Shown: positions 35,444 to 53,596, numbered from the stretch's first letter. The stretch is 64,000 nucleotides of DNA from a virus (IMGVR_UViG_3300029267_004155); one strand, 5' to 3'. Numbers and translations are program-made. Notes: generated by a model from the letters alone, not told the origin.

Positions 35444-36322
35444 TCTTGTGCGTCTGTGGCTGAGGCGTATAATGGTGGCGGAGGCGAGATGGAAAAGGCC
35501 ACTTTGACCGACATACTGGACATGTGGATGATGCGGACGCCGAGGCTTTTCAAGAGCGACGCGACCGCCTTGAGTTTCCTGGAGGCCTGCGCCGGGGTGG
35601 CGCGGGGAGAGGTTGGGCTCGCGCGACCGCCGGAGCTGCTGGCGGCCGGGGGCTTCTCCTCCTCCGGGGTTGACGCTGAGGAGATGAGGAAGGAGCTGGC
35701 CTTCGTGGCCGGAGAAGGAGCGGACGATGACAGACCAGGCGGACCAGGCGGAGTTGACGGCGAGGGAGTCGGAGGACAGGAGGAAGTGGCCGGAGAAGGA
35801 GGCGGAGGACACGAGAAGGTGGCCGCGGAAGGAGCAGGAGGCGGGAGGCCAGGCGGAGCCGAGGGCGAGGGGGTCGGAGGACAGGAGAAGGGGACCGGAG
35901 GACAGGAGAAGGGGGTCGGAGGACAGAGGAAGGGGGGCGAGGGACCAGGGGCCTCCGGGGAACCCTCACGTCCAGCACATGAGGGGCGTGATCCTGGAGA
36001 CGATCCGGGCCGTGCAGAAGGAGAAGCACGACTGCCTGGACTGCTTCCAGGCTTTCGCCCGTAGCGCCCGGGACGAGGAGGAGCTCAAGAACGTGATGAA
36101 CGGCATGATGCTGGTGGGGAGGCTGCACAGCAATGACGCCTGACGAACAGCTGATCTGCACCCGGTGCGGCGCCGAGATCGAGAGCATGATGGATGTGGG
36201 CTATCTGGGGCCGAGGGACCGGGGCGACAGGAGCTGCCACCCGTTCATGGAGTTCGAGACGGTCTGCCGGGAGTGCGAGGACAAAGGTGCCGAAGGCACG
36301 TCGGGAAAATCCGGCGACGGGG

Positions 36323-36352
36323 TTGGCAAGTCGGCGCCCGAGGGTGTATAAT
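36323..36352 (+). promoter_or_regulatory. Sigma70-like promoter of tRNA operon 1
   Basis: TTGGCA-18 nt-TATAAT with extended TG. Confidence 0.7.
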
Positions 36353-36420
36353 GGGATTTTGGACGACGGGTGAGGGTCCTGGCCAATTCCAGGGCTGGAC
36401 CCCACAAACCGAGAGAGACG

Positions 36421-36510
36421 ATGGACAAGCAGAGTCGCAACCTGATGTTGGCATGTTGTGGGCGGGGATATTCCTCGTTCCGCCTTACGCCTGCGTCCGG
36501 GCTGCGTTGA
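36421..36510 (+). CDS. Attenuator leader peptide 1 (MDKQSRNLMLACCGRGYSSFRLTPASGLR)
   Basis: Codons match operon-1 tRNAs; its 3' end contains the antiterminator strand. Confidence 0.8.
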   Translation: MDKQSRNLMLACCGRGYSSFRLTPASGLR

Positions 36511-36562
36511 CGCTCGTCGAAGCCCCTAGGCCCCCGGACGCGAAAGCCTCCGGGGGTTTTTC
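36493..36562 (+). terminator. Attenuator 1 antiterminator/terminator switch
   Basis: GCGTCCGGG (36493-36501) is complementary to terminator 5' arm CCCGGACGC (36533-36541); hairpin + U-tract. Confidence 0.85.
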
Positions 36563-36569
36563 TGTTTCT

Positions 36570-36660
36570 GGAGGGCGACCGGCTGCACGAGGAGCTCGAT
36601 TTGAAATCGGGTAGGCCCTGGAAACGGGGTCTCGGGGTTGGAGTCCCCGGCCCTCCTCCA
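36570..36660 (+). tRNA. tRNA-Ser(UGA), atypical D/T loops
   Basis: Cloverleaf, long variable arm, CCA. Confidence 0.8.
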
Positions 36661-36669
36661 GGATTGAAA

Positions 36670-36754
36670 GGCCCAGTGGCGGAATTGGCATACGCGCCCG
36701 ATTCAAAATCGGGTCCCTTCGGGGATGGGAGTTCGACTCTCCCCTGGGCTACCA
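36670..36754 (+). tRNA. tRNA-Leu(CAA)
   Basis: Cloverleaf, CCA. Confidence 0.92.
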
Positions 36755-36816
36755 GCAACAAATGGAACGAGATAGCGAGTCCGGGATCGAGAGAAGGAGA
36801 TGATCGACGACGAGAT

Positions 36817-36902
36817 GCGTCGGCTGAGCATTTGGCGAGCTCCCCGGTCTGTAAAATCGGCGCCTTCGGGCTTTGATGGTTCGACTCCATCTCGGCGCAC
36901 CA
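36817..36902 (+). tRNA. tRNA-Tyr(GUA)
   Basis: Cloverleaf, variable arm, CCA. Confidence 0.85.
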
Positions 36903-36915
36903 ACAACTGAACAGT

Positions 36916-37002
36916 GGTCCCGTGCCGGAATTGGCATACGGCCCCGGTTGAGGGCCGGGGGCCCGAGAGGGCGTGGGAGTTCGAGTCTCCCCGGGGTCAC
37001 CA
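36916..37002 (+). tRNA. tRNA-Leu(GAG)
   Basis: Cloverleaf, CCA. Confidence 0.9.
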
Positions 37003-37010
37003 GGAATCAT

Positions 37011-37101
37011 GGAGAGCATCCGGCCGGATGAGGAGCGCGTTTCGAAAGCGCGTAGGTCCCGGGAACGGGGCTTCGGAGTTCGAGTCTCCGGCTCTCCGCC
37101 A
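37011..37101 (+). tRNA. tRNA-Ser(CGA)
   Basis: Cloverleaf, long variable arm, GCCA. Confidence 0.85.
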
Positions 37102-37199
37102 AGATGTGGACCGGGGCTTCAAACCTCGGTGCAACCCATTAACGTCTTGTGGGGTATGCAAAGGCGTGACTTCGCCGGGTGGAGAGAACCCGGCAACAA

Positions 37200-37285
37200 G
37201 CCCGGGTGGTGGAATTGGCAGACACGCTGCGCTCAGACCGCAGTGCCGAAAGGCGGTGAGGGTTCGACTCCCTCCTCGGGCACCA
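37200..37285 (+). tRNA. tRNA-Leu(CAG)
   Basis: Cloverleaf, CCA. Confidence 0.92.
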
Positions 37286-37294
37286 GATTTAGAC

Positions 37295-37371
37295 GCAGTG
37301 GTAGCTCAGCCAGGTAGAGCTTCCGCCTTCCAAGCGGAAGGTCGCGCGTTCGATTCGCGTCCACTGCACCA
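37295..37371 (+). tRNA. tRNA-Gly(UCC)
   Basis: Cloverleaf, CCA. Confidence 0.9.
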
Positions 37372-37387
37372 TTGATAGGAGGAAGGA

Positions 37388-37564
37388 GTGAGGGCGCCAA
37401 ACTCGGTGATACGCGAGCGACTTGACCGTTGGTGCAAGCCGTGTCGTAAGATGGACGCCAAGGCGATGGTGTGCTTGGTGGAGAGGTGCAACGTCAGACG
37501 AAAGGCGTCGTTGGCAGAAGAGTCGTGCCCGATGGGTTTCTGGGGGAAGTACGAGGAGATTTGA
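37388..37564 (+). CDS. Small Cys-rich protein (DUF6171-like) inside the tRNA array
   Basis: ERLDRWCKPC...C....C...K....SCPMGFW; AGGAGG RBS; below the ORF-track size cutoff. Confidence 0.55.
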   Translation: MRAPNSVIRERLDRWCKPCRKMDAKAMVCLVERCNVRRKASLAEESCPMGFWGKYEEI

Positions 37565-37569
37565 ATAGT

Positions 37570-37660
37570 GGAGAGCGTCCGGATGGACGAGGAGTCGGTT
37601 TGCTAAACCGGTAGGCCCTGGAAACGGGGTTTCGGGGTTCGATTCCCCGGCTCTCCGCCA
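37570..37660 (+). tRNA. tRNA-Ser(GCU)
   Basis: Cloverleaf, long variable arm, GCCA. Confidence 0.87.
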
Positions 37661-37738
37661 AAGATTGTGTCCCGACCGGTGCTCGGGCTTGGCAGCCCGA
37701 CGGGTCCAAACGCCCGGCCAGAACTGGAAGGGACTTTC

Positions 37739-37815
37739 GGTGAGGTAGCTCAGTCCGGTAGAGCACTCGGTTGAAGCCCGAGGCGTCGTTGGTTCGATTC
37801 CGACTCTCACCACCA
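37739..37815 (+). tRNA. tRNA-Phe(GAA)
   Basis: Cloverleaf, CCA. Confidence 0.9.
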
Positions 37816-37820
37816 ATTTG

Positions 37821-37904
37821 GCCCGAGTGGCGGAATGGCAGACGCGGCCGGTTTAAGTTCGGCTGTCGAAAGGCGTGCAGGTTCGATCCCTGTCTCGGGC
37901 ACCA
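37821..37904 (+). tRNA. tRNA-Leu(UAA)
   Basis: Cloverleaf, CCA. Confidence 0.9.
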
Positions 37905-37942
37905 AGGTGTAGCAGTGTAGCAGTGTAGCAAAGGAGATTTTT

Positions 37943-38018
37943 GGCGGGGTGGCTGAGAGGTTTAGGCGCGCGGTTGCAACCCGCGTTCATGAGGGTTCGA
38001 GTCCCTCCCCCGTCTCCA
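37943..38018 (+). tRNA. tRNA-Cys(GCA)
   Basis: Cloverleaf, U73, CCA. Confidence 0.9.
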
Positions 38019-38025
38019 TTTTCGA

Positions 38026-38196
38026 TGAGGCCGTCCACCTAATGGCAAGGGCCGGAGCGGAGCGCCGCATAGCCCGTCGAGGCGCAAGCGCGACGGGTGA
38101 CGCCTGCGAGTCCAAAGGGCTGTGACATGGCCAGCCACGCGGGCTGCGGAATGGGCAGGACGCACCGGGATGCGGGTTCGAGTCCCGTCGGCTTCA
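38026..38196 (+). ncRNA. tRNA-like RNA with ~105-nt structured insert replacing the anticodon loop
   Basis: Acceptor TGAGGCCG/CGGCTTCA, D-like loop TAATGGCAAG, T arm GCGGGTTCGAGTCCCGT. Confidence 0.6.
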
Positions 38197-38204
38197 GACT
38201 TTGA

Positions 38205-38295
38205 GGAGAGCATCCGGCTGCATGAGGAGCGCCGTTGGAAACGGCGTCGGTCCGGGAAACCGGGCTTCGGGGTTGGAGTCCCCGGCTCTCCGCCA
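38205..38295 (+). tRNA. tRNA-Ser(GGA), atypical D/T loops
   Basis: Cloverleaf, GCCA. Confidence 0.82.
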
Positions 38296-38327
38296 GTATG
38301 TTAAGGGCAACCCAAAGGAGGTTGCTG

Positions 38328-38993
38328 ATGAAGATCGAGGGCTGTCGGGTGGCCGCGGCGATGGTCGTCTATCACACCTACGGCCTGATGAGGAAGGCGG
38401 TGGCGTCGGTGAGGAGGTTCTATCCGGACATCGACTTCTTCGTGGTGGACAACACCGAGGGGGTCGCTCCGAGGAACGTCAGGAAATGGGCGAAGAGGAA
38501 CCGGGTGAGGCTTATCCGGGTGGGGTCCAACATCGGCCATGGGCCGGGGATGAACGTGGCGCTGTGGGCGACGGAGGCCGACGTGCTGCTGATGCTGGAC
38601 AGCGATACGGAGATGTACGAGCCGAACTTGCTGGAGGACGCCCTGGCGAAGGTCGGGGGCCGGAAGACCAGGTGGTACGGGATAGGGCCGGTCGCGCCGG
38701 TGAAAAGGCCGGTGGGAGGCGAGAAGGTTTCGTACCTTCATTCGTCGACGTGCCTCTTCCATGTCGGGTACTATCGGCGGTTCGAGCCGTTCACGGACCA
38801 CGGGCTTGCGCTGGTGGCGCCGATGTACGAGCTGAGGGTCAAGAGGATGGAGTCGATGCTGGTGGACTTCCCGGTCCAGGACTACGTGCATCACCTCTGG
38901 AGAGGAACCAGGGACTTTTGCAGGGGCCACCAGCTGGACAGGTCTTACGAAAGCCGGAAGTCGGCCTCCTGGTGGGAGCCTGGGAAGTTTTGA
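38328..38993 (+). CDS. Glycosyltransferase family 2
   Basis: VVDN, NIGHGPGMN, LMLDSD. Confidence 0.85.
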   Translation: MKIEGCRVAAAMVVYHTYGLMRKAVASVRRFYPDIDFFVVDNTEGVAPRNVRKWAKRNRVRLIRVGSNIGHGPGMNVALWATEADVLLMLDSDTEMYEPNLLEDALAKVGGRKTRWYGIGPVAPVKRPVGGEKVSYLHSSTCLFHVGYYRRFEPFTDHGLALVAPMYELRVKRMESMLVDFPVQDYVHHLWRGTRDFCRGHQLDRSYESRKSASWWEPGKF

Positions 38994-38999
38994 TAATGA

Positions 39000-39077
39000 G
39001 CGCCCGTAGCTCAGTCTGAATAGAGCGCCCCGCTACGGACGGGGAAGTCGCAGGTTTGAATCCTGCCGGGCGTGCCA
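39000..39077 (+). tRNA. tRNA-Arg(ACG)
   Basis: Cloverleaf; A19/U56 variant. Confidence 0.88.
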
Positions 39078-39084
39078 ACTTTGA

Positions 39085-39160
39085 GGACCTGTAGTTCAGT
39101 TGGAAGAACATCGGTCTCCGAAGCCGAAGGTCGCGGGTTCGAGTCCCGCCGGGTCCTCCA
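39085..39160 (+). tRNA. tRNA-Arg(CCG)
   Basis: Cloverleaf, CCA. Confidence 0.9.
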
Positions 39161-39167
39161 GAATTAT

Positions 39168-39244
39168 CCGTCTGTAGCTCAGTTGGTTAGAGCGGTCGTC
39201 TCATACGCGACAGGTTGTAGGTTCGATCCCTACCAGACGGACCA
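39168..39244 (+). tRNA. tRNA-Met(CAU), elongator-type
   Basis: Cloverleaf, paired 1-72, CCA. Confidence 0.85.
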
Positions 39245-39347
39245 TCCTCTTTGAAGACGGGCCTCTGGCGGTGTACAATAGGCCAGGAGGTGCGCCGCGA
39301 GGCTTGAGGCGAGGTGACGATCGACGACTACGAGAAGGAGCGGGGCG

Positions 39348-39971
39348 ATGACGGGAGTGCTTGACAGGCGGGTCCTGGTGCTTGACGGCTCGTGGAGGCC
39401 GGTGGACGTGACGAACGTGGTCGGGGCCCTGTGCAAGGTGTGCGCGGGGAAGGCCGACGTCGTCGACAATGACTACTCCCTCTACGGCTTCGAGGAGTGG
39501 GTCGAGAGCTGGTCCGACGCGGCCAGGGCCGCGGAGATGGCCGAGTCGGGGCGCCCCCTCGTGCGTTCCAGGAGCTTCGCCTTCCCGGCGCCGGAGGTCA
39601 TCCGGCTCGTCCGGAAGGTCCGCTTCTGGCGTCGTCGGGCCAAGCTCTGCCGGAAGGCGATCTTCGCCCGCGACCGGAACGTCTGTCAGTACTGCGGCAA
39701 GAAGCTGCCGGCCTCCAAGCTCAACATCGACCACGTGGTCCCCAAGTCCAGGGGTGGAGGCACGACCTGGGAGAACCTGGTTCTCTCGTGCGTGAGGTGC
39801 AACCACAAGAAGGACAGCCGGACGCCCAGGGAGGCGGGCCTGACGCTCCTGAGGGAGCCGAGGGAGCCGCACTGGGCCGTCGTCAACAGGCGTGGCATCC
39901 TGAGGGACCCTCCCAGGTCGTGGGAGGACTTCCTCGGCGCCATGTACTGGGACGTCGAGCTGGAGGGCTGA
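39348..39971 (+). CDS. HNH endonuclease
   Basis: IFARDRNVCQYCG...NIDHVVPKSRGGGTTWENLVLSCVRCNHKK. Confidence 0.93.
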   Translation: MTGVLDRRVLVLDGSWRPVDVTNVVGALCKVCAGKADVVDNDYSLYGFEEWVESWSDAARAAEMAESGRPLVRSRSFAFPAPEVIRLVRKVRFWRRRAKLCRKAIFARDRNVCQYCGKKLPASKLNIDHVVPKSRGGGTTWENLVLSCVRCNHKKDSRTPREAGLTLLREPREPHWAVVNRRGILRDPPRSWEDFLGAMYWDVELEG

Positions 39972-40048
39972 CGGGCCGGTTCTCGGAAAAATCTCCGAGG
40001 GGGCTGGTAAGACTGGCGTTGACGGCGTATGATAATAGGCAAGGAGCA

Positions 40049-40129
40049 ATGTACTCAATGAACCCGATGGCCAGACACGAAGCGATCGAGCAGCCCGCGA
40101 ACGCGGGTGCCGGGGGTGCTGTGTTCTGA
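40049..40129 (+). CDS. Attenuator leader peptide 2 (MYSMNPMARHEAIEQPANAGAGGAVF)
   Basis: AAGGAG RBS; TATGATAAT upstream; codons match operon-2 tRNAs. Confidence 0.82.
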   Translation: MYSMNPMARHEAIEQPANAGAGGAVF

Positions 40130-40186
40130 CCCTGATAGGTCCAAGGACCCCCGGCACCCCGAAAAGGGCGTCGGGGGTTTTTCTTT
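40105..40186 (+). terminator. Attenuator 2 antiterminator/terminator switch
   Basis: GGGTGCCGGGGGT (40105-40117) is a perfect 13-bp complement of ACCCCCGGCACCC (40147-40159); hairpin + U-tract. Confidence 0.9.
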
Positions 40187-40222
40187 GGAGTCGAGAGAAG
40201 GAGGGCGAGTCACGAGCAGGAC

Positions 40223-40300
40223 GGGCCGGTAGCTCAGTTGGCTAAGAGCACCTGACTTGCAATCAGGATGTCCAGGGTTCGATCCCCTGTCGGTCCACCA
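40223..40300 (+). tRNA. tRNA-Ala(UGC)
   Basis: Cloverleaf, G3:U70, CCA. Confidence 0.92.
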
Positions 40301-40311
40301 ACAATTCAGAT

Positions 40312-40389
40312 GCGCCTCGGAGCTCGGTCAGGAAGAGCGCCCGGTCGTGGCCCGGGAGGCCGCGGGTTCGAGTCCCGTCGGGGCGCCCA
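40312..40389 (+). tRNA. tRNA-His(GUG)
   Basis: 8-bp acceptor with G-1:C73; C33. Confidence 0.85.
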
Positions 40390-40398
40390 GGATCATGC

Positions 40399-40476
40399 GG
40401 TGGCGTAGCTTAGTTGGCCGAAAGCGCTGTCCTGTCACGGCAGAGAACGAGGGTTCAAATCCCTTCGTCACCGCCA
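40399..40476 (+). tRNA. tRNA-Asp(GUC)
   Basis: Cloverleaf, GCCA. Confidence 0.9.
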
Positions 40477-40483
40477 ATATCAC

Positions 40484-40559
40484 GGCCACGTAGCTCAGCG
40501 GCAGGAGCGTCCGGTCCACACCCGGATGGTCGAAGGTTCGAGTCCTTCCGTGGTCACCA
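40484..40559 (+). tRNA. tRNA-Val(CAC)
   Basis: Cloverleaf; C33. Confidence 0.87.
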
Positions 40560-40565
40560 GTTCGA

Positions 40566-40639
40566 TGCCCGGTGGTGTAATGGCAGCACAGCTGGTTCTG
40601 GCCCAGTCGGTCAGGGTTCGAGTCCTTGCCGGGCAGCCA
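40566..40639 (+). tRNA. tRNA-Gln(CUG)
   Basis: Cloverleaf, U1-A72. Confidence 0.9.
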
Positions 40640-40647
40640 GATATCGA

Positions 40648-40724
40648 GCGCCCGTAGCTCAGGGGATACGAGCAGCGCACTTCTAATGCGCGGGTCGAAG
40701 GTTCGAATCCTTCCGGGCGTGCCA
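40648..40724 (+). tRNA. tRNA-Arg(UCU)
   Basis: Cloverleaf, GCCA. Confidence 0.9.
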
Positions 40725-40726
40725 AT

Positions 40727-40803
40727 GGGCGGTTAGTTCAGATGGCTAGAACGTCAGCTCGACATGCTGAAGGTTGCGAGTTCGAGTCTCGCACCGCCCA
40801 CCA
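40727..40803 (+). tRNA. tRNA-Val(GAC)
   Basis: Cloverleaf; C33. Confidence 0.88.
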
Positions 40804-40834
40804 TCAGTCAAGGAGAGAGGCGAGAGCAACATGT

Positions 40835-40911
40835 CGGCCCATAGCTCAGTTGGTAAGAGCGAACGGCTGATAACCGTTAGGTCGGAGGTTCGATTCCTCC
40901 TGGGCCGACCA
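40835..40911 (+). tRNA. tRNA-Ile(GAU)
   Basis: Cloverleaf, CCA. Confidence 0.92.
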
Positions 40912-40925
40912 ACAATTGAATATGT

Positions 40926-41000
40926 GTCCCCATCGTCTAGCGGCCAGGATGCGAGGCCCTCAACCTCGTGACGCCGGTTCGAGTCCGGCTGGGGATGCCA
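40926..41000 (+). tRNA. tRNA-Glu(CUC)
   Basis: Cloverleaf, GCCA. Confidence 0.9.
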
Positions 41001-41112
41001 GGATTGAGGGCTGCAATATGGCCGGAAAGCAAGTCGCGGGCTTTGCCGAGTTCCAAGACGCGCAGAAGCGGGTAGACGGCAGTCCTGGGGGAGCGGCAAA
41101 CTCCCCCGAACT

Positions 41113-41189
41113 CGGGATGTGGCTCAGTCTGGTAGAGCGTCCGGCTGGGGGCCGGAAGGTCGCAGGTTCGATTCCTGCCATCCCGACCA
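41113..41189 (+). tRNA. tRNA-Pro(GGG)
   Basis: Cloverleaf, C1-G72. Confidence 0.92.
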
Positions 41190-41199
41190 TAGACTTGAG

Positions 41200-41278
41200 A
41201 GCGGGGTGAATGTCGATTTGGTAAGACGCCAGGCTCATAACCTGGAGCATGTGGGTTCAACTCCCACCCCCGCCACCA
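41200..41278 (+). tRNA. Initiator-like tRNA-fMet(CAU)
   Basis: A1.C72 mismatch, TTCAA T loop, irregular D arm. Confidence 0.75.
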
Positions 41279-41343
41279 ATATCGGGACGTGACGAGCGGT
41301 TTGACTCCGTCGCCTGAAGCGTGAATGGGCAAGCGTCCCACTT

Positions 41344-41418
41344 GGCCCCATCGTCTAGTGGCAAGGACGTCGGGTTTTCATCCCGGAGACGGGGGTTCGA
41401 TTCCCCCTGGGGCTACCA
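41344..41418 (+). tRNA. tRNA-Glu(UUC)
   Basis: Cloverleaf, CCA. Confidence 0.9.
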
Positions 41419-41426
41419 GTTTTAGA

Positions 41427-41498
41427 TGGCCCGTAGCTCAGCGGTAGAGCATGCGACTCATAATTGCGGGGTCCTCGGTTCAATCCCGAGCGGGCCAA
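41427..41498 (+). tRNA. tRNA with CAU anticodon (probable Ile2), no encoded CCA
   Basis: Cloverleaf; ends ACTA. Confidence 0.75.
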
Positions 41499-41667
41499 CT
41501 AGTTTTTTGTTGCGATGATGGCCGGTACCGGCGAGGGAAAGTCATCAGATGGGCGCCAACCGGGTATTGCTCGGAAGAAGGCACTGTCGGAAATCGGTGG
41601 TGGGGTGACGTCCGAAGCCGCCGTTCGCCGACGCCCGTTCCGTCTGGCGGCGGCCGCGACATCTTAT

Positions 41668-41744
41668 CGGGATGTGGCTCAGTCTGGTAGAGCGCCTCGT
41701 TCGGGGCGAGGAAGCCGGAGGTTCAAATCCTCTCATCCCGACCA
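41668..41744 (+). tRNA. tRNA-Pro(CGG)
   Basis: Cloverleaf, CCA. Confidence 0.92.
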
Positions 41745-41749
41745 GTTTT

Positions 41750-41826
41750 CGGGCGGTGGCGCAGTTTGGAAGCGCGCGGCGTTTGGGGCGCTGAGGTCGC
41801 CGGTTCGAGCCCGGCCCGCCCGACCA
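41750..41826 (+). tRNA. tRNA-Pro(UGG)
   Basis: Cloverleaf, CCA. Confidence 0.9.
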
Positions 41827-42006
41827 GTCTCGGGATGTGTCCAGACGTGGAGAAACTGGACCGCAAAAACAAAAAACTCTCGCAGTAACGAGACCCGAAA
41901 GGGATAGGAAGTGAGGAAACTGCGTCAACAACACTCGGCCTCCGTAGCTCTGGGCGCTTACACCTACGGACCTTTTCGCAGGCAGGAAGATGGAGGAAGA
42001 CGATTG

Positions 42007-42894
42007 ATGGACCTGATAGTGGAAACCGACATCGGGCACGATCCCGACGACTACTTCACGCTGTGCCACCTGCACGCCGCGGGTGTCAGGATCAGGGCGA
42101 TCCTCGTCTCTCCCGGACACCGGTACCAGGTCGCCATCGCGAGGGCCTTCTGCGCGGAGGTCGGCCTGGATGTCCCTGTCGGGATCGCGAAGGAGACGAG
42201 CGTCGTCAAGACCGGAGGGACGTCGTTCCACATGGCGCTCCTGAGGAAGATGGGACATCCGACCGAGGCGGACCCCGACGGCTTCGGCCACGAGCTTCTG
42301 GGCGGGGTTCTCGAGGACCATCCGGACAGCGACGTCTTCATCTGCGGGCCGGTGAAGAACGTGGGCCGCTACATGATCGAGCATCCGGAGAGGGAGTTCG
42401 GGCGGGTCACGATGCAGGGTGGCTTTCTGGGATACGACCTTCATGGCCATGACGTCGAGAGGCTTCCCAAGTTCAAGGGCAAGGTGGCCGTGCCTACCTT
42501 CAACTTGAACGGGTCGAAGGACGAGGGCTTGTTCCTGGCGTCGCGGGCGAAGGTCGGGGACCTGAGGTTCGTCGGCAAGAACGTCTGTCACACGATCCTG
42601 TACGACAGGGCGAGGCACGAGTGGATGAGGCGCAGGAAGCCTTCCTGCCGGGCGATGGAGCTGTTCATGGAAGGCATGGACCTCTATCTCTACGGGAAGA
42701 GGCACCGGGAGAAGAAGTTCCACGACCCGACCGCTGCCGTGTGCCATCTGCATCCCGAGATCGGGACCTGGGTTGGCGGAAGGTTGTACCGGGAGGGAGG
42801 CTGGTGGGGGACGAAGGTCGAGGAGGGGACGAACACCAGGGTCTTGGCCGATGTTGACCGGGAGGGGCTTTGGGACTTTATCAGAGGGTGTTAG
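42007..42894 (+). CDS. Inosine/uridine-preferring nucleoside hydrolase family protein
   Basis: ETDIGHDPDD, GPVKN, MQGG, TFN, FHDP motifs. Confidence 0.85.
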   Translation: MDLIVETDIGHDPDDYFTLCHLHAAGVRIRAILVSPGHRYQVAIARAFCAEVGLDVPVGIAKETSVVKTGGTSFHMALLRKMGHPTEADPDGFGHELLGGVLEDHPDSDVFICGPVKNVGRYMIEHPEREFGRVTMQGGFLGYDLHGHDVERLPKFKGKVAVPTFNLNGSKDEGLFLASRAKVGDLRFVGKNVCHTILYDRARHEWMRRRKPSCRAMELFMEGMDLYLYGKRHREKKFHDPTAAVCHLHPEIGTWVGGRLYREGGWWGTKVEEGTNTRVLADVDREGLWDFIRGC

Positions 42895-42913
42895 GGCCCG
42901 TCCGGCCATGGAT

Positions 42914-42987
42914 TGCCCCGTGGTGTAATGGCAGCACAAGTGTCTTTGGAGCACTCGGTTCTGGTTCGAGTCCAGGCGGGGCAGCCA
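42914..42987 (+). tRNA. tRNA-Gln(UUG)
   Basis: Cloverleaf, GCCA. Confidence 0.9.
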
Positions 42988-43049
42988 TCTCCTGGGCGCG
43001 GGCAGGCCGGGGCCGGCCTCGATCCCCGTCGGAAAAACCGAGAGGTCGC

Positions 43050-43078
43050 TTGGCAAATTCGGGCGAGCGGCGTATAAT
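43050..43078 (+). promoter_or_regulatory. Sigma70-like promoter of tRNA operon 3
   Basis: TTGGCA-17 nt-TATAAT. Confidence 0.75.
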
Positions 43079-43102
43079 AAGGCAACGAAAGGCAACTACG
43101 TC

Positions 43103-43186
43103 ATGCTGACGGGAACCACAACGAAAGACAATACCTGGGGCGGCAAGCCCGCCCACGGGGGTCTTTCGCTTGGAGTTCAAGCGTAG
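43103..43186 (+). CDS. Attenuator leader peptide 3 (MLTGTTTKDNTWGGKPAHGGLSLGVQA)
   Basis: GAAAGG RBS; codons match operon-3 tRNAs. Confidence 0.8.
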   Translation: MLTGTTTKDNTWGGKPAHGGLSLGVQA

Positions 43187-43243
43187 ACGGTGGCGAGCGC
43201 GCTGTGAGACCCCCGGCCCGAAAGGGCGCGGGGGTTTTTCTTT
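43156..43243 (+). terminator. Attenuator 3 antiterminator/terminator switch
   Basis: CGGGGGTCT (43156-43164) is complementary to AGACCCCCG (43207-43215); GAAA-loop hairpin + U-tract. Confidence 0.85.
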
Positions 43244-43319
43244 GCGGCAGTAGCTCAGTCGGAAGAGCACCTGCTTGCCAAGCAGGAGGCCACGGGTTCG
43301 AGCCCCGTCTGTCGCACCA
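43244..43319 (+). tRNA. tRNA-Gly(GCC)
   Basis: Cloverleaf, CCA. Confidence 0.9.
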
Positions 43320-43330
43320 GGTTTCATGAT

Positions 43331-43407
43331 AGGTCCGTAGCTCAATCGGCTAGAGCACCGGTCTCCAAAACCGGCGGTTCTCGGTTCGACCCCGAGCGGG
43401 CCTGCCA
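43331..43407 (+). tRNA. tRNA-Trp(CCA)
   Basis: Cloverleaf, GCCA. Confidence 0.92.
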
Positions 43408-43411
43408 AGAA

Positions 43412-43487
43412 CGGCTCGTAGCTCAGTTGGTAGAGCATCCGCCTTTTAAGCGGAACGCCGAGGGTTCGAGTCCCTCCGAGCCGACCA
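43412..43487 (+). tRNA. tRNA-Lys(UUU)
   Basis: Cloverleaf, CCA. Confidence 0.92.
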
Positions 43488-43568
43488 GAAATTCGGAGCG
43501 AGTGGAAAACCTTGCTCGTTCGGCAATGTAGGGTGGAGACGAGGTTCAACAGAAGGAGATGTGATCGA

Positions 43569-43642
43569 GGTTCCGTAGCTTAGAGGTAGAGCGGGCGGCT
43601 CGGACCGCGTGGCCGCAGGTTCGAGCCCTGCCGGGACCTCCA
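43569..43642 (+). tRNA. Aberrant tRNA with 6-nt anticodon loop (CTCGGA; possibly Arg(UCG)-derived)
   Basis: Intact acceptor, D and T arms and CCA; short anticodon loop. Confidence 0.6.
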
Positions 43643-43663
43643 ACTCGACAGGAGAGTCTATTC

Positions 43664-43740
43664 GCACCCGTAGCTCAGTTGGCTAGAGCGGCTGACTCTT
43701 AATCAGCAGGTTCTCGGTTCGAACCCGAGCGGGTGTGCCA
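43664..43740 (+). tRNA. tRNA-Lys(CUU)
   Basis: Cloverleaf, GCCA. Confidence 0.92.
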
Positions 43741-43751
43741 ACAATTCAGAT

Positions 43752-43847
43752 GCCGATGTGGTGTAATGGTAGCACACCGGGTAAACCGGAGGTTTTCCTC
43801 GATCAGCGCGCGTAGTCGAGGCGGTTCAAGTCCAGACATCGGCTCCA
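43752..43847 (+). ncRNA. Thr-like tRNA derivative with shortened anticodon arm and extra hairpin
   Basis: GCCGATG/CATCGGC-TCCA acceptor; CCGG-GTAAA-CCGG; inserted CCTCGA...TCGAGG stem. Confidence 0.6.
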
Positions 43848-43965
43848 ACAACTTAGGCGACACCTGCCTGTCCGAAGAAGGTCCGGCGACGAGCGGGGAC
43901 GAACCCGTGGACGACCAGGCTGGAGGAGAAGTGGTGTGACTCGGGTGAGAGCAGGCCCGCATTAA

Positions 43966-44042
43966 GCCCGGATAGCTCAGTGGCTAAGAGCAGCCGATTC
44001 GTAATCGGCAGGTCGAGGGTTCGAGTCCCTCTCTGGGCTCCA
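43966..44042 (+). tRNA. tRNA-Thr(CGU)
   Basis: Cloverleaf, CCA. Confidence 0.92.
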
Positions 44043-44045
44043 GAC

Positions 44046-44119
44046 TCCCCCATGGTGTAATGGTAGCACGTAGGACTGTTAATCCTTTGGTCCTGGTTCG
44101 AGTCCAGGTGGGGGAACCA
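44046..44119 (+). tRNA. tRNA-Asn(GUU)
   Basis: Cloverleaf, CCA. Confidence 0.9.
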
Positions 44120-44169
44120 ACTCAAGCCGGGTCGACGAGATCGGCCGTCAGGGAAAAGGAGGCAGGGAC

Positions 44170-45612
44170 ATGAAGAGGGAAGAGACGATTCGGAAGCTGT
44201 ACGAGTGCGTTCAGACGCGTCCGCGTCCGGAGGATGTTGCCGAGGTCGTGCTGGAGGCATTGCTTCCGCGGCTGTCGCTGGCCCAGAGGAACGTCTTGAA
44301 GCAGGCGACCAGGATCTCGACGAGGAGCCACCTCCTGGGCTACTCGTCCATGGCCGCGGACTTCCATCGCCCGACGGGCATGGAGAAGCCGGTCAAGGTG
44401 GCGTCCGAGCTCTTCTCCGTTCCGATGCTGTCGGTGGAGGAGTGCCTCGACCCGGAGAGGGTGGAGGTCTTCGTCCAGGGCGTGTCGTCGGCCATCGGCA
44501 AGAGCTACGGGCAGTCCGACTTCCTGAAGCACCGGATGAACCGGGAGCAGCGGGCGCAGGCGGGCCTCGACATGGGGCACCGCGCCTACAACAAGCGCTT
44601 CAGGCTCCTGGGCCGGATGGAGTCCAAGCTCCTGAGGATGGTCCGCGAGCGGAAGAAGTACGTCCTGACCCGGATCGGCAAGAGCGGCTTCGCCGTGGAG
44701 ATCGACTTCGACGACTTCTCCGCCGACCTGGGCACGGCCTGCTTCGTGGCGTACATGAGCGCGAGGATGAGCCTTCGGAGCACCTTCACGAACGACTCCC
44801 AGGTTCGGGCCTTCGACGTGGTGGCCAAGATGCTGTACGACCGCCTGACCAAGTCCAACACGGCCAGGTGGGACGTCGTGGCCGCCGTCTATCCGGTGGA
44901 CAGGGTCCTGAGGCTCCTGACGGACTACCAGAAGGGCGCCATGCTCGCGAGGGCGTGGGGTCTCCTGGAGGACGCGTGCGACCTTCTCACGGAGGTCTGG
45001 GAGGGTTCCGGCGGCGGCATCGACCTGGAGAGGATGGTGGTGCGGCGCGGGTGCGACTCGTCGACGTGGAACCAGTCGGCCGGCGGGTGGAACAAGGCCC
45101 GGGACCACTGGGTGTCGATGCTTCACGCCATGGGCATGGGCTCCATGCTTGAGGCCCTGTGCCCGGGCAAGGTCATGAGGCTGATGGCGGCGGACGTGGT
45201 CCGTTGGCACCTGGCCTCGGGCGGCGACGTCCATCCGGGGACCAAGGTGTGGGCTGAGCTTCCGTACCCGTGGGACGTCGTCGCGGGCAAGGAGCGGTGC
45301 ACGAAGGAGATGGTGGTGGCCGCGTGCGAGAGGCACGGCGTCGAGCCGGCGTCCTGGGTCGGGCCGAGGAGGCGTGCCCGGGCCGTGGAGTTCACGCCGA
45401 CCCCCGAGCTGGTGCACGGCGTCGCCGTGTCGAGCCCGGGACTGGCTCTCGCCCTGCGGAGGGCCGGGGTCTTCTCGGCCAAGGCCCTCAGGGCCGAGCA
45501 TCTCCCGGCCGGCGGCTTCCATGTCGACAGGGACGGCGACGGCTTCGCGCTCGGGGCGACCGACGCGAATTCTCACGGGTCGGGCCGGAAGGTCCGGGCC
45601 GCGGGCGTATAG
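44170..45612 (+). CDS. 480-aa helical protein of unknown function at the end of the tRNA array
   Basis: AGGAGG RBS; motif-rich C-terminus (DSSTWN, CPGKVMRLMAADV, PTPELVHGV). Confidence 0.8.
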   Translation: MKREETIRKLYECVQTRPRPEDVAEVVLEALLPRLSLAQRNVLKQATRISTRSHLLGYSSMAADFHRPTGMEKPVKVASELFSVPMLSVEECLDPERVEVFVQGVSSAIGKSYGQSDFLKHRMNREQRAQAGLDMGHRAYNKRFRLLGRMESKLLRMVRERKKYVLTRIGKSGFAVEIDFDDFSADLGTACFVAYMSARMSLRSTFTNDSQVRAFDVVAKMLYDRLTKSNTARWDVVAAVYPVDRVLRLLTDYQKGAMLARAWGLLEDACDLLTEVWEGSGGGIDLERMVVRRGCDSSTWNQSAGGWNKARDHWVSMLHAMGMGSMLEALCPGKVMRLMAADVVRWHLASGGDVHPGTKVWAELPYPWDVVAGKERCTKEMVVAACERHGVEPASWVGPRRRARAVEFTPTPELVHGVAVSSPGLALALRRAGVFSAKALRAEHLPAGGFHVDRDGDGFALGATDANSHGSGRKVRAAGV

Positions 45613-45625
45613 TAGGAGTGGATGC

Positions 45626-45787
45626 AGGTGTGTAGCTCAGTGGTAGAGCGTCCCGGCTCTTTTTCCGGGAGGACGCAGGTTCGAGCCCTGCCTCACCTGC
45701 CAATCTTGTCTCGACGTAGCTCAGTGGTAGAGCGTCCCGGCTCTTTTTCCGGGAGGACGCAGGTTCGAGCCCTGTCGTTCGAGGCCA
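45626..45787 (+). ncRNA. Two tandem near-identical tRNA-like RNAs with an 8-nt CUCUUUUU loop
   Basis: 59-nt duplication (45632-45690 and 45716-45774); both end in GCCA. Confidence 0.7.
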
Positions 45788-46366
45788 TTTGGTTTTCGAC
45801 CCCTGTCGGTTCGACTCCGACGTCCGGCTCCTATACTAGTTGCACGGGAGGCGGCCACACCGGTTGGAAGGGTGGGCCCGGGGGTCTTTCTTGACGTCCC
45901 CGGCTCAATGGAGAGCTGGGCACTTGTGGCGCCCAGACGCCAGTTCGATTCTGGCAGGGGCTCCATCCTCCGTTCCGCGTCCCTGGTCCGAGCCCGAGGG
46001 CAGGCCGCGTCTTTCTTCTCCTCCTTGGCGGCGTATAATCCCATGACGAATCATGGAGGGCGCTGACGACGTAGAATGGGATGGAGAGCTTTGCGGACTG
46101 GTGGCGGTAGCCAGAGAGCGAGAACAAGGAGATGCGAGATGATCTATCGGGGCAAATGGTTCACGGTGAGGGTCGAGGAGCTGGCGGAGGTTGGCGTCTC
46201 GACGTCGCAGGGGAACAAGGGTGAGGTCGTGCGCGGGCTGCACGTGACGCACAGGTCGGGGACGCAGAACCGGACGTCTTACGCCGACGAGGCGGAGCTC
46301 ATGAGGGACTACGAGGGGCTCGCCGCGGCCATGGAGAAGGTGGACGACAAGTAGGAGGGGAGAGCC

Positions 46367-47005
46367 ATGTTCGACGGAGTCAAGCTGTCGAAGAAGTTCC
46401 TGTCCAGGCGAGACACGTTCTTCGTGTCGCCGTCCTGGTTCGGCTGTGGGCACTGGGCGGTCCGGAGGGAGATGCTTCTTTCCCCGGACCTTTCCGGCCT
46501 GGGAGCTGGCGGGGTGGAGCTGACGACGGGCGAGATTGCCACGAAGCTCGGCCTCGAGCCTTACAGGGCGCAGTGGCATTGGAGGGAGGACGACATGTTC
46601 GAGGCCATGCTCTGCCCGGAGCCGGACGGTGCCGAGAGGTTCCGCCGGCAGGAGTGGGTGAAGGTGGGCTGCGACTCGGGTCGGAATGTCGACTCGGTCC
46701 TGTTCCAGGGGGATGACTCGGGGACCCCGTGCTTCATCGACAGGGACTTCGTCCAGACGTTCGACGTCGACGAGCTCGTGATGGGCGCCGGCGGGAAGGT
46801 CGCGATGCACGATCCGGAAAGGCGCGTCGTCATCGCCAGGAGGGTCGGGGACCTTCCGCGCGTGATGGTGACGAAGGATCGGGTCATCCGGGAGGAGGAC
46901 CTGATGGCGGCGGTCCGGGACGCGTGCGCCGAAGCGAAGCTCGATCCGGGTGTCGGTGGCCAGCTCTCGTATGCGATCGGCAGGAGGATAGGGGTGGCGG
47001 TGTGA
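46367..47005 (+). CDS. Hypothetical protein
   Basis: GGAGG RBS. Confidence 0.6.
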   Translation: MFDGVKLSKKFLSRRDTFFVSPSWFGCGHWAVRREMLLSPDLSGLGAGGVELTTGEIATKLGLEPYRAQWHWREDDMFEAMLCPEPDGAERFRRQEWVKVGCDSGRNVDSVLFQGDDSGTPCFIDRDFVQTFDVDELVMGAGGKVAMHDPERRVVIARRVGDLPRVMVTKDRVIREEDLMAAVRDACAEAKLDPGVGGQLSYAIGRRIGVAV

Positions 47006-52381: not shown

Positions 52382-53596
52382 ATGGCAACGAAGGCGAACG
52401 AGAAGCAAGTGGCGGACAAGGTCGAGCAGCTGCTCGGCACCGAGGTCCGCATCGAGGTCAAGGCGGACGATCCTTCCGTCGTGGACATCGCCAAGGACCT
52501 GCGCCTGGCGCGGGTGCTCCTGGCGTTGACGACCAGGGGCATCGCGATCGAGCGGGCCGGCAACGTCATGACCATCTTCCGCATCGGGGCCGCGCGGCCG
52601 GCCCAGGCGGGGCCGCCCAAGGGTGTCGTGGTGCCCGATCCTGACAGGCCGGAGGCCACCGCCACCCCGAAGGTGGACCGGAGCCGTCACAGCTCCCGCC
52701 CGTACGCCAAGGAGAAGGACGTGCTCGACGTGGTCACGGACGACGCGAGCCACGTCCTCATGTTCGTCGGGCCCGCGGGCTGCGGCAAGACCTTCGAGGC
52801 TCGCCGCATCGCCGAGCTGACGGGACGCAAGTTCTACCGCCTCCAGTGCCATGGCGACATGACCTCCGCCGACCTCTTCGGCGAGAAGACCGTCGAGGTC
52901 GACGAGAAGACCGGCCAGTCGGTCGTCGTCTACAAGCCGGGCACCGTGGTCCAGGCCTGGCAGGAGGGGCTCGACGAGGACGGCAACGAGACCGGCCAGG
53001 CGGCGCTTCTCCTGATCGACGAGTGGGCGGCCATGCCGACCCACCTGTTCATCGCTCTCAACGCCTCCCTGGAGTCGGACGACCCCCGGCGCAGGCTGGT
53101 GGTCGAGGCTGACGGCGGCAGGCTCATCCGGAGCCACAGCGGCCTCCGCATCATCCTCACGAGCAACCTGGCGGGGCGCGGGGCCTCGACCATGGGCGAG
53201 GCCCTTCACACGGCCCAGGCGGACGCTCAGGACATCTCGGGCATCAACCGGGTGGCTGCCACTTTCCGCTTCGGCTATGACAGGAAGCTGGAGAAGGGCA
53301 TTCTCATGGAGAAGGTGGGCGACGACAGGGTGGTCCGGGACATCCTGCGCCTCCGCGACCAGATCAGGGCCCAAATCAAGACCGAGCGCCTGCGGGAGCC
53401 TTTCGGCACCCGGCACTTGATCGCCATAGCGAACCTCTATCGCATCTGGGGCGACCTCGGGAAGGCGCTCTACCTGTCCATCATGACGGGCATGGCGCCC
53501 GATGAGCGGGCGGTCGTCAACGAGACCGCCAAGAACGTCCTCGACCGCGACCTCATGAAGGAGATCGAGGACGACGAGGACATCGACTACATGTGA
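52382..53596 (+). CDS. CobS/MoxR-like AAA+ ATPase
   Basis: GPAGCGKT, LLIDE, TSN, GTRHL. Confidence 0.88.
   Translation: MATKANEKQVADKVEQLLGTEVRIEVKADDPSVVDIAKDLRLARVLLALTTRGIAIERAGNVMTIFRIGAARPAQAGPPKGVVVPDPDRPEATATPKVDRSRHSSRPYAKEKDVLDVVTDDASHVLMFVGPAGCGKTFEARRIAELTGRKFYRLQCHGDMTSADLFGEKTVEVDEKTGQSVVVYKPGTVVQAWQEGLDEDGNETGQAALLLIDEWAAMPTHLFIALNASLESDDPRRRLVVEADGGRLIRSHSGLRIILTSNLAGRGASTMGEALHTAQADAQDISGINRVAATFRFGYDRKLEKGILMEKVGDDRVVRDILRLRDQIRAQIKTERLREPFGTRHLIAIANLYRIWGDLGKALYLSIMTGMAPDERAVVNETAKNVLDRDLMKEIEDDEDIDYM

Follow-up and report, generated by a model that had tools for sequence, protein, structure and literature searches.

The closest described counterparts of the elements reported here are the leader-peptide attenuators of enterobacteria, among them the multivalent attenuators of ilvGMEDA (Ile, Val and Leu) and thr (Thr and Ile), along with trpL, hisL, leuL and pheL. 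These systems combine a short leader open reading frame (ORF) rich in regulatory codons with an intrinsic terminator and mutually exclusive antiterminator and anti-antiterminator helices, and it is established that stalling of the ribosome at hungry codons favors transcription readthrough. In Escherichia coli pheST, the pheM leader places a component of the translation apparatus under the same kind of control by cognate-codon decoding. T-box riboswitches likewise tie a terminator/antiterminator switch to the state of a transfer RNA (tRNA) and control translation-related genes, while in the lambda PR′-6S RNA-tR′ arrangement a phage promoter is followed about 200 nucleotides (nt) downstream by a strong terminator that gates genes under the control of Q. 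The tRNA genes that phages carry are usually regarded as being expressed constitutively or under temporal control. We analyzed a stretch of viral DNA of 64,000 nt (IMGVR_UViG_3300029267_004155; the window, below) in which three blocks of tRNA genes are each preceded by a promoter, a short leader ORF and an intrinsic terminator. These units are probably ribosome-mediated transcription attenuators of the trp/ilv type that control tRNA operons.

Comparison with the known systems shows what is shared and what is not. As in the enterobacterial attenuators, we propose that stalling in the leader favors readthrough. However, the enterobacterial attenuators control biosynthetic enzymes and contain runs of codons for one to three amino acids, whereas the units in the window would control tRNA genes and sample 6 to 15 different codons, approximately one or more per downstream anticodon. 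The product tRNA would act directly on the sensor, resulting in a self-referential loop, and the units are phage-borne, with three in one genome that are each keyed to their own block. The pheST attenuator controls a synthetase protein, responds to one amino acid and is cellular, in contrast to the viral tRNA genes and the many codons found here. T-box riboswitches bind one uncharged tRNA directly without a ribosome, whereas the units described here contain a bounded reading frame. In the lambda system, antitermination depends on the Q protein, which is loaded at the promoter, and codons play no part. Thus the structural elements of a leader-peptide attenuator (an ORF, codons related to the product, a terminator and a maskable antiterminator) are all found at this locus, and the controlled genes differ, which most likely represents a new use of a classical mechanism.

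All of the evidence described herein is computational, and the leaders, promoters and terminators were predicted from the sequence. The original prediction described three blocks with the same order of promoter, leader, GC hairpin with U-tract and tRNA genes, and this arrangement was found with minor corrections (Table 1). The window contains three GGGGGTTTTT hairpin terminators that conform to a pattern of at least three G and at least five T residues (G3+T5+), and no others. Each of them lies 150-200 nt downstream from a related sigma-70-type promoter and 4-40 nt upstream from the first tRNA gene of a block, the shortest distance being the 4 nt between the end of the terminator 3 T-tract and tRNA-Gly. 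The terminator hairpins have GC stems of −20 to −22 kcal/mol. Between each promoter and its hairpin is a single ATG-initiated ORF of 29, 26 or 27 codons, whose stop codon is 18-23 nt before the stem. A search of the 64 kb for the TTGGCAA...TATAAT-type pattern returned two matches only, P1 and P3, and we found no further consensus promoter in the gaps of 4-40 nt between the terminators and the tRNA genes. Because all three G3+T5+ hairpins of the 64 kb are placed in this way, with a related promoter on one side and a tRNA block on the other, we conclude that this layout is real and that chance does not offer it elsewhere in the window.

We next consider the codons of the leaders, which the original prediction held to match the tRNAs of their own blocks. 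Codon matches were scored under strict wobble with the start codon left out. When the three leaders were pooled, 43 of 79 codons were read by a tRNA of the same block. The 38 tRNAs were also dealt randomly among the three blocks in 20,000 trials, in which the number of matches averaged 28.1 and never exceeded 42 (P≤5e-5), and this result was unchanged when isoacceptor families were kept together. Viewed from the tRNA side, the leader of the same block contains a cognate codon for 35 of the 38 tRNAs (15/15, 14/16 and 6/7 for blocks 1, 2 and 3, respectively). Codons 6-17 of leader 2 (PMARHEAIEQPA) are cognate to block 2 tRNAs by codon or amino acid, and codons 3-15 of leader 3 (TGTTTKDNTWGGK) specify Thr, Lys, Asn, Trp and Gly. 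As had been proposed, isoacceptor splits are tracked as well. CGN codons for Arg are in leader 1 and AGA is in leader 2, just as the Arg tRNAs are divided between the blocks; similarly, GGR codons for Gly are in leader 1, and GGC and GGT are in the regulatory part of leader 3. Considered one at a time, leaders 1, 2 and 3 gave P values of 3e-5, 0.23 and 0.03 against the coding usage of the phage, and 0.026, 0.12 and 0.019 against a small null of 155 short ORFs from the window. The match of a single leader is thus of moderate weight at best, and that of leader 2 by itself does not convince; our conclusion depends on the joint and cross-genome tests.

We reached relatives of these units through homologs of the nucleoside-hydrolase-like gene in block 2 and through a tRNA search of five IMG/VR huge-phage records of 424-533 kb (relatives are designated by L numbers). 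The relatives are AT-rich huge phages at a very great distance from the phage of the window; they are 34-50% GC and have no leader sequence in common with the window, and they exhibit the same layout. Nine units of these distant phages contain a leader ORF with a start and a stop codon between the promoter and the tRNA genes, together with a canonical hairpin and T-tract terminator. The peptide sequence is not conserved among units; what is conserved is the set of tRNA identities that the leader samples. In L264, the motif QQPQPQQPR (CAA, CAG, CCG, CCA, CCC and AGG) precedes Gln(UUG), Gln(CUG), Pro(CGG), Pro(UGG), Pro(GGG) and Arg(CCU), such that it contains exactly the six cognate codons of its six tRNAs. 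One leader of L130 contains IIDMHIRRWDR and precedes Arg(CCU, UCU and ACG), Trp, Ile, two Asp, Met and two His tRNA genes, while a second leader of L130 contains EPEPEEPP and precedes Pro and Glu tRNAs only (five Pro/Glu genes). Leaders with codons for K, H, N, R, Q and W (L267), for A, V, G, C and D (L269) and for Q, R, A and V (L272) are followed by Trp, His, four Arg, Asn, Gln and Lys tRNAs, by Val, Gly, Ala, Asp and Cys tRNAs, and by three Arg, four Val, Gln and two Ala tRNAs, respectively. The leaders of L261, L262 and L263 likewise follow their tRNA sets.

A uniform rule was then applied to identify units. It specified a hairpin of −12 kcal/mol or lower followed by at least four T residues, a tRNA gene starting no more than 150 nt downstream, and an ATG-initiated ORF with a length of 12-50 codons and a distance of 5-70 nt between its end and the stem. 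This rule yielded 15 pairs of leaders and tRNA sets, including two evident false candidates that were kept in the test. The own tRNA set ranked first for 8 of the 15 leaders and third or better for 13, and the mean z was 2.9 for own sets as compared with 0.03 for foreign sets. When tRNA sets were permuted over the 15 units, none of 200,000 permutations reached the observed sum (P≤5e-6). In the 12 clear units, own leaders cover 90% of the tRNAs of their own block, as compared with 42% covered by other leaders. A scan of IMG/VR with the terminator pattern returned generic GC-rich terminators with no tRNA context.

The reading frame allows two other explanations to be assessed. Because promoter, short transcript and terminator also make up the anatomy of a small RNA gene, the three elements could be independent genes for small RNAs or micropeptide mRNAs that end at their own terminators, with the tRNAs transcribed from elsewhere and the codon likeness due to local composition or chance. 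The blocks are roughly sorted by first codon letter, and a local base bias could mimic a match of this kind. In the 12 clear units, however, 148 of 324 codons (46%) match the own tRNA set in the frame of the ORF, whereas only 47 of 312 (15%) and 58 of 312 (19%) do so in the two shifted frames. Since the match is lost in shifted frames of the same nucleotides, we excluded a base-composition artefact, which the permutation test likewise rules out. Neither random deals nor set swaps ever reached the observed values, the peptides are conserved not in sequence but in the tRNAs that they sample, and the 4-40 nt gaps provide no other consensus promoter for the tRNAs. Independent small genes are therefore an extremely unlikely explanation. 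In the other explanation, the leader RNA would bind tRNAs by codon-anticodon pairing without translation and would switch according to their charging, as in a T-box riboswitch. T-box leaders have terminator/antiterminator pairs and sense tRNAs, and the leaders described here contain many tRNA-cognate codons. Yet an Rfam search of 35500-46500 on either strand found no match to the T-box family at E≤1, and the cognate triplets form one continuous frame from ATG to stop in every unit and lineage. In addition, a T-box has a single specifier in a structured Stem I and a conserved acceptor-binding bulge, neither of which is conserved among these units. We regard direct tRNA binding of this type as highly improbable.

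The match between leaders and tRNA sets extends to a cultured phage, phiCbK of Caulobacter. Terminators are annotated directly upstream of tRNA blocks in the phiCbK record; the genome paper lists the tRNAs and terminators and does not mention attenuation (PMC3556154). In one of these blocks, tRNA genes for Phe, Val (two), Ile (two) and Gln (two) follow a 32-codon ORF that contains the motif QFVRQIQVVRNI, and an ORF rich in S, L and P codons (gp083) precedes two Pro, three Leu and two Ser tRNA genes. Thus the expectation that leader codons co-vary with the tRNA content of arrays in other phages was borne out both in phiCbK and in the distant huge phages, and the match is specific to the frame of the ORF. 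The feature is real, statistically robust and present in several unrelated phage lineages, and the span of these lineages from 34% to 66% GC suggests wide use or repeated invention of the design. A difference was also seen in the last tRNA of a homologous block, which is Gly(UCC) in phiCbK (L282 5710-5787, corresponding to phiCbK 52509-52586) and Arg(UCU) in CcrSwift (L283 1360-1437) and most relatives, apparently through a one-base anticodon switch.

A leader-peptide attenuator would also require alternative RNA structures. Complementarity of 9, 13 and 9 base pairs (bp) between the 3′ part of each leader and the 5′ arm of its terminator had been proposed, and the three duplexes were recovered at these lengths (Table 1). 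All of them were stronger than those of dinucleotide shuffles (P = 0.047, 0.003 and 0.023 for units 1, 2 and 3, respectively). When the full leaders of units 1 and 3 were folded, the terminator formed and the antiterminator strand was paired with the regulatory codons (strands 1 and 2); this anti-antiterminator involves codons 6-10 in unit 1. When the same leaders were folded without the 3′ arm of the terminator, the antiterminator (strands 2 and 3) formed. Together with the terminator (strands 3 and 4), these pairings constitute the classical four-strand design. Both conformers were thus seen for units 1 and 3. The fold of unit 2 was different, in that even the full RNA preferred the 13-bp antiterminator to the terminator, and the helix between strands 1 and 2 is absent from the minimum-free-energy fold. 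Termination in unit 2 would need a ribosome near the stop codon to mask the antiterminator strand. In 11 of the 12 clear units, part of the leader could pair with the terminator 5′ arm more strongly than dinucleotide shuffles, with a mean z of −3.1.

The position of the complementary strand bears on whether the ORF could act in some other way, such as through Rho-dependent polarity, through processing or stability of the tRNA precursor, or with a response of reversed sign. Simple masking fits the units unequally, given the stability of the antiterminator in unit 2, the location of the complementary strand of L272 at 44 nt after the stop codon, and the distance of about 19-20 nt between this strand and the stop codon in unit 3. 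Nevertheless, in 9 of the 12 units this strand either overlaps the stop codon or has its end 2-19 nt upstream from it, where a terminating ribosome would cover the strand, and hairpin and T-tract terminators are present in all units. A different role for the leader ORF is thus improbable. The same strand bears on the possibility that the terminators are targets of a processive antiterminator protein of the phage, as in lambda PR′-6S-tR′ with Q or in N/nut, such that a protein would time tRNA expression and the ORFs would be incidental. A strong promoter, a transcript of approximately 150-200 nt, a strong terminator and then genes are reminiscent of lambda PR′/tR′, and the conserved small hairpin just upstream of each −35 element could be a protein site. 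However, this explanation accounts neither for the frame-specific codon-anticodon match and its covariation across phages with unrelated promoters nor for an antiterminator strand at the 3′ end of the ORF, and we consider it very unlikely. Antitermination of the Q type could still operate as an extra layer beside attenuation.

Our model for the three units is as follows. Host RNA polymerase would initiate at the sigma-70-type promoter and synthesize a short leader, and a ribosome would translate the ORF of 26-29 codons, most of which would be read by the downstream tRNAs. If decoding were fast, the ribosome at the 3′ end of the ORF would cover the antiterminator strand, the terminator would form and transcription would stop before the tRNA genes. 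Conversely, if a codon were slow to be decoded owing to scarcity of its charged tRNA, the ribosome would stall upstream, the antiterminator would form and polymerase would enter the tRNA block. The newly made tRNAs would then relieve the stall, such that each of the three units would operate separately as a negative-feedback regulon for the tRNAs of its block. With this model we infer that ribosomes translate the leaders in step with transcription, that polymerase stops at the terminators in the host and that the response has the direction given here.

Several observations weigh against this model. The enrichment in leader 2 by itself is not significant under strict wobble (14/25, P = 0.23), the second half of leader 3 contains non-cognate codons, and the Shine-Dalgarno sequence is weak for leader 1 and only 2 nt from the first ATG for leader 2. 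The naked RNA of unit 2 favors the antiterminator, such that the three units are not identical in logic, and masking by a terminating ribosome is less obvious in unit 3, in which the antiterminator strand is about 19-20 nt before the stop codon. Some leader codons are left without an explanation; for instance, in phiCbK, the CGN codons for Arg in the first leader have no matching isoacceptor, as the tRNA of that block is Arg(UCU)/Gly(UCC). A scan of individual tRNA genes showed that many single tRNAs within huge-phage arrays have no leader and that only the heads of multi-tRNA operons carry one. Finally, the L263 and L264 units are homologous, and thus the number of independent events is somewhat less than 15.

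Table 1. Coordinates of the predicted elements of the three tRNA units and of the genes within the blocks (positions are those of the window).
Feature	Position	Strand	Description
Promoter P1	36323-36352	+	TTGGCA-N18-TATAAT; 11/12 sigma-70 consensus positions
Leader ORF 1	36421-36510	+	29 codons; 20/28 codons read by block 1; all 15 block 1 anticodons covered
Antiterminator strand, unit 1	36493-36501	+	9 bp with terminator 5′ arm 36533-36541; ends 7 nt before stop codon
Intrinsic terminator 1	36531-36561	+	26-nt GC hairpin (36531-36556), −20 kcal/mol, then T5
tRNA block 1	36570-39244	+	Ser(UGA), Leu(CAA), Tyr, Leu(GAG), Ser(CGA), Leu(CAG), Gly(UCC), Ser(GCU), Phe, Leu(UAA), Cys, Ser(GGA), Arg(ACG), Arg(CCG), Met
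Glycosyltransferase ORF	38235-38993		Inside block 1
Promoter P2	40004-40033	+	CTGGTA-N18-TATGAT; weaker homolog of P1 and P3
Leader ORF 2	40049-40129	+	26 codons, three in-frame ATGs; 14/25 codons read by block 2; 14/16 tRNAs covered
Antiterminator strand, unit 2	40105-40117	+	13 bp with 40147-40159; ends 10 nt before stop codon
Intrinsic terminator 2	40148-40182	+	30-nt hairpin (40148-40177), then T5
tRNA block 2	40223-42987	+	Ala, His, Asp, Val(CAC), Gln(CUG), Arg(UCU), Val(GAC), Ile, Glu(CUC), Pro(GGG), CAU, Glu(UUC), CAU, Pro(CGG), Pro(UGG), then hydrolase ORF, Gln(UUG)
Inosine-uridine nucleoside-hydrolase-like ORF	41911-42894		327 amino acids; in block 2
Promoter P3	43050-43078	+	TTGGCA-N17-TATAAT; 11/12 sigma-70 consensus positions
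Leader ORF 3	43103-43186	+	27 codons; 9/26 codons read by block 3; 6/7 tRNAs covered
Strand 1, unit 3	43123-43129	+	GAAAGAC, within regulatory codons; pairs with strand 2 in full-length fold (anti-antiterminator)
Antiterminator strand, unit 3	43156-43164	+	9 bp with 43207-43215; ends about 19-20 nt before stop codon
Intrinsic terminator 3	43210-43239	+	25-nt hairpin (43210-43234), then T5
tRNA block 3	43244-44119	+	Gly(GCC), Trp, Lys(UUU), degenerate tRNA, Lys(CUU), deformed Ser(GGA)-like gene, Thr(CGU), Asn
Upstream hairpin, unit 1	36299-36316	+	GAAAAU loop; just 5′ of P1 −35; read from sequence
Upstream hairpin, unit 2	39982-39999	+	Stem CTCGGA / TCCGAG, A-rich loop (AAAAUC); 5′ of P2
Upstream hairpin, unit 3	43028-43041	+	Loop AAAAA; 5′ of P3

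The original prediction knew of no description of the multi-codon arrangement, and our literature search agrees with this. In the full-text literature searched, we encountered no report of tRNA genes under the control of a leader peptide, whether of phages or of bacteria; subscription-only work, such as older papers on the tRNA region of phage T5, was outside this search. Such control is described neither by Naville and Gautheret in 2010 (PMC2965389) nor in the phiCbK genome paper. A leader that lists the codons of the downstream tRNAs would gauge decoding capacity directly and would be self-correcting, extending classical attenuation from amino-acid supply to tRNA supply. The design would also account for the grouping of the tRNA genes of a phage into the blocks that are seen, and its sequence rule predicts where the operons begin and end and in which identity odd tRNAs function. 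Moreover, ideas on the role of phage tRNAs, including codon-usage compensation, host shut-off and escape from tRNA-cleaving defenses, become testable with reporters, for which phiCbK and Caulobacter crescentus are tractable. We speculate that the attenuators serve as counter-defense sensors, in that anticodon nucleases and other tRNA-depleting defenses (PrrC/RloC-type, VapC-type, and retron- or PARIS-linked cleavage) would stall ribosomes in the leader and thereby induce the replacement block. If so, each block would do more than simply regulate supply and would be induced as a rescue regulon specific for the damage. This role is doubtful, and simple homeostasis of supply and demand during infection is at least as likely as rescue from anticodon nucleases.

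The region lies within a stretch of 66% GC with a strong skew of G over C, and nearly all of its genes are on the plus strand. Throughout the window (1-64000), the GC skew is above 0 in every 2-kb bin (0.08-0.28) and long ORFs with high GC at third codon positions are nearly all on the plus strand, which is an unusually strong strand asymmetry. Contigs of sediment and seawater metagenomes, with lengths of up to 298 kb, carry identical copies of the region, from which we conclude that the element is from an uncultured jumbo phage of approximately 298 kb. Four copies from other metagenomes (L002-L005) contain 0 substitutions and so provide no information on covariation. A megablast search of 36300-44200 against 50,697 phage records found no match, and a distant blastn search of the region against phage records matched scattered tRNA genes only. 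In a protein search among phage records, the matches of the CobT-like gene were at most 32% identical. By nucleotide and protein comparison, there is no close relative among the 50,697 deposited phage genomes.

ARAGORN and Rfam identified about 40 tRNA genes in 36570-45964. The genes under putative control of the three units are 38 tRNA genes, the glycosyltransferase ORF and the nucleoside-hydrolase-like ORF; no amino-acid biosynthetic enzyme or aminoacyl-tRNA synthetase is among them. The tRNA content agrees with the original prediction, to which we add two CAT tRNAs in block 2 (41201 and 41427), the deformed Ser(GGA)-like gene and the degenerate tRNA in block 3, and Gln(UUG), which follows the 327-amino-acid hydrolase gene of block 2 and is still upstream of P3. 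Odd tRNA-like genes with a defective or replaced anticodon region are located at 43569-43642, 43752-43847 and 38027-38196. Among these genes are one with a 6-nt loop and a two-base anticodon call, the 96-nt Ser(GGA)-like gene, and one that ARAGORN called only at a lowered threshold. Leader 3 lacks a codon that would correspond to the Ser(GGA)-like gene. A small hairpin with an A-rich loop is located 6-9 nt before the −35 element of all three tRNA promoters; this hairpin could be a site for a protein or for processing, or could mark the end of upstream transcripts.

The nucleoside-hydrolase-like gene is also present in or beside the tRNA arrays of distant huge phages (L130 10001-10882; L205/L213 and L167/L224 10001-10870). 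The hydrolase family comprises 420 matches, many of which are on contigs of 100-650 kb. The AT-rich megaphage L001 carries the hydrolase gene and has no tRNAs within its 20 kb. A functional link of the gene to tRNA or nucleoside metabolism is possible.

An ORF of 480 amino acids near 44170-45787 has no match in Pfam or PHROG and has more than 1000 homologs; none of its homologs in L006-L009 adjoins a leader-bearing tRNA array. Directly downstream from this ORF in the window are two tRNA-like genes with 8-nt anticodon loops (CUCUUUUU, called 'cttt'). Similar odd tRNAs directly follow the homologous ORF in three of four relatives examined (cgat, cttc and cttg, and cttg; homologs include L006 7291-8805, L007 10001-11743 and L009 5434-7033), and thus the protein and the expanded-loop tRNA may be a conserved pair. 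Neighbors of this family include an RNA ligase, Thg1, an RF-1 domain protein and NADAR. Finally, the huge-phage relatives carry suppressor-type tRNAs with the anticodons CUA, in several copies, and UUA (L263 at approximately 4117, L268 from 1652 onward, L273 at 2077, L277 at 3098 and L278 at 2394), which hints at stop-codon recoding in those phages.

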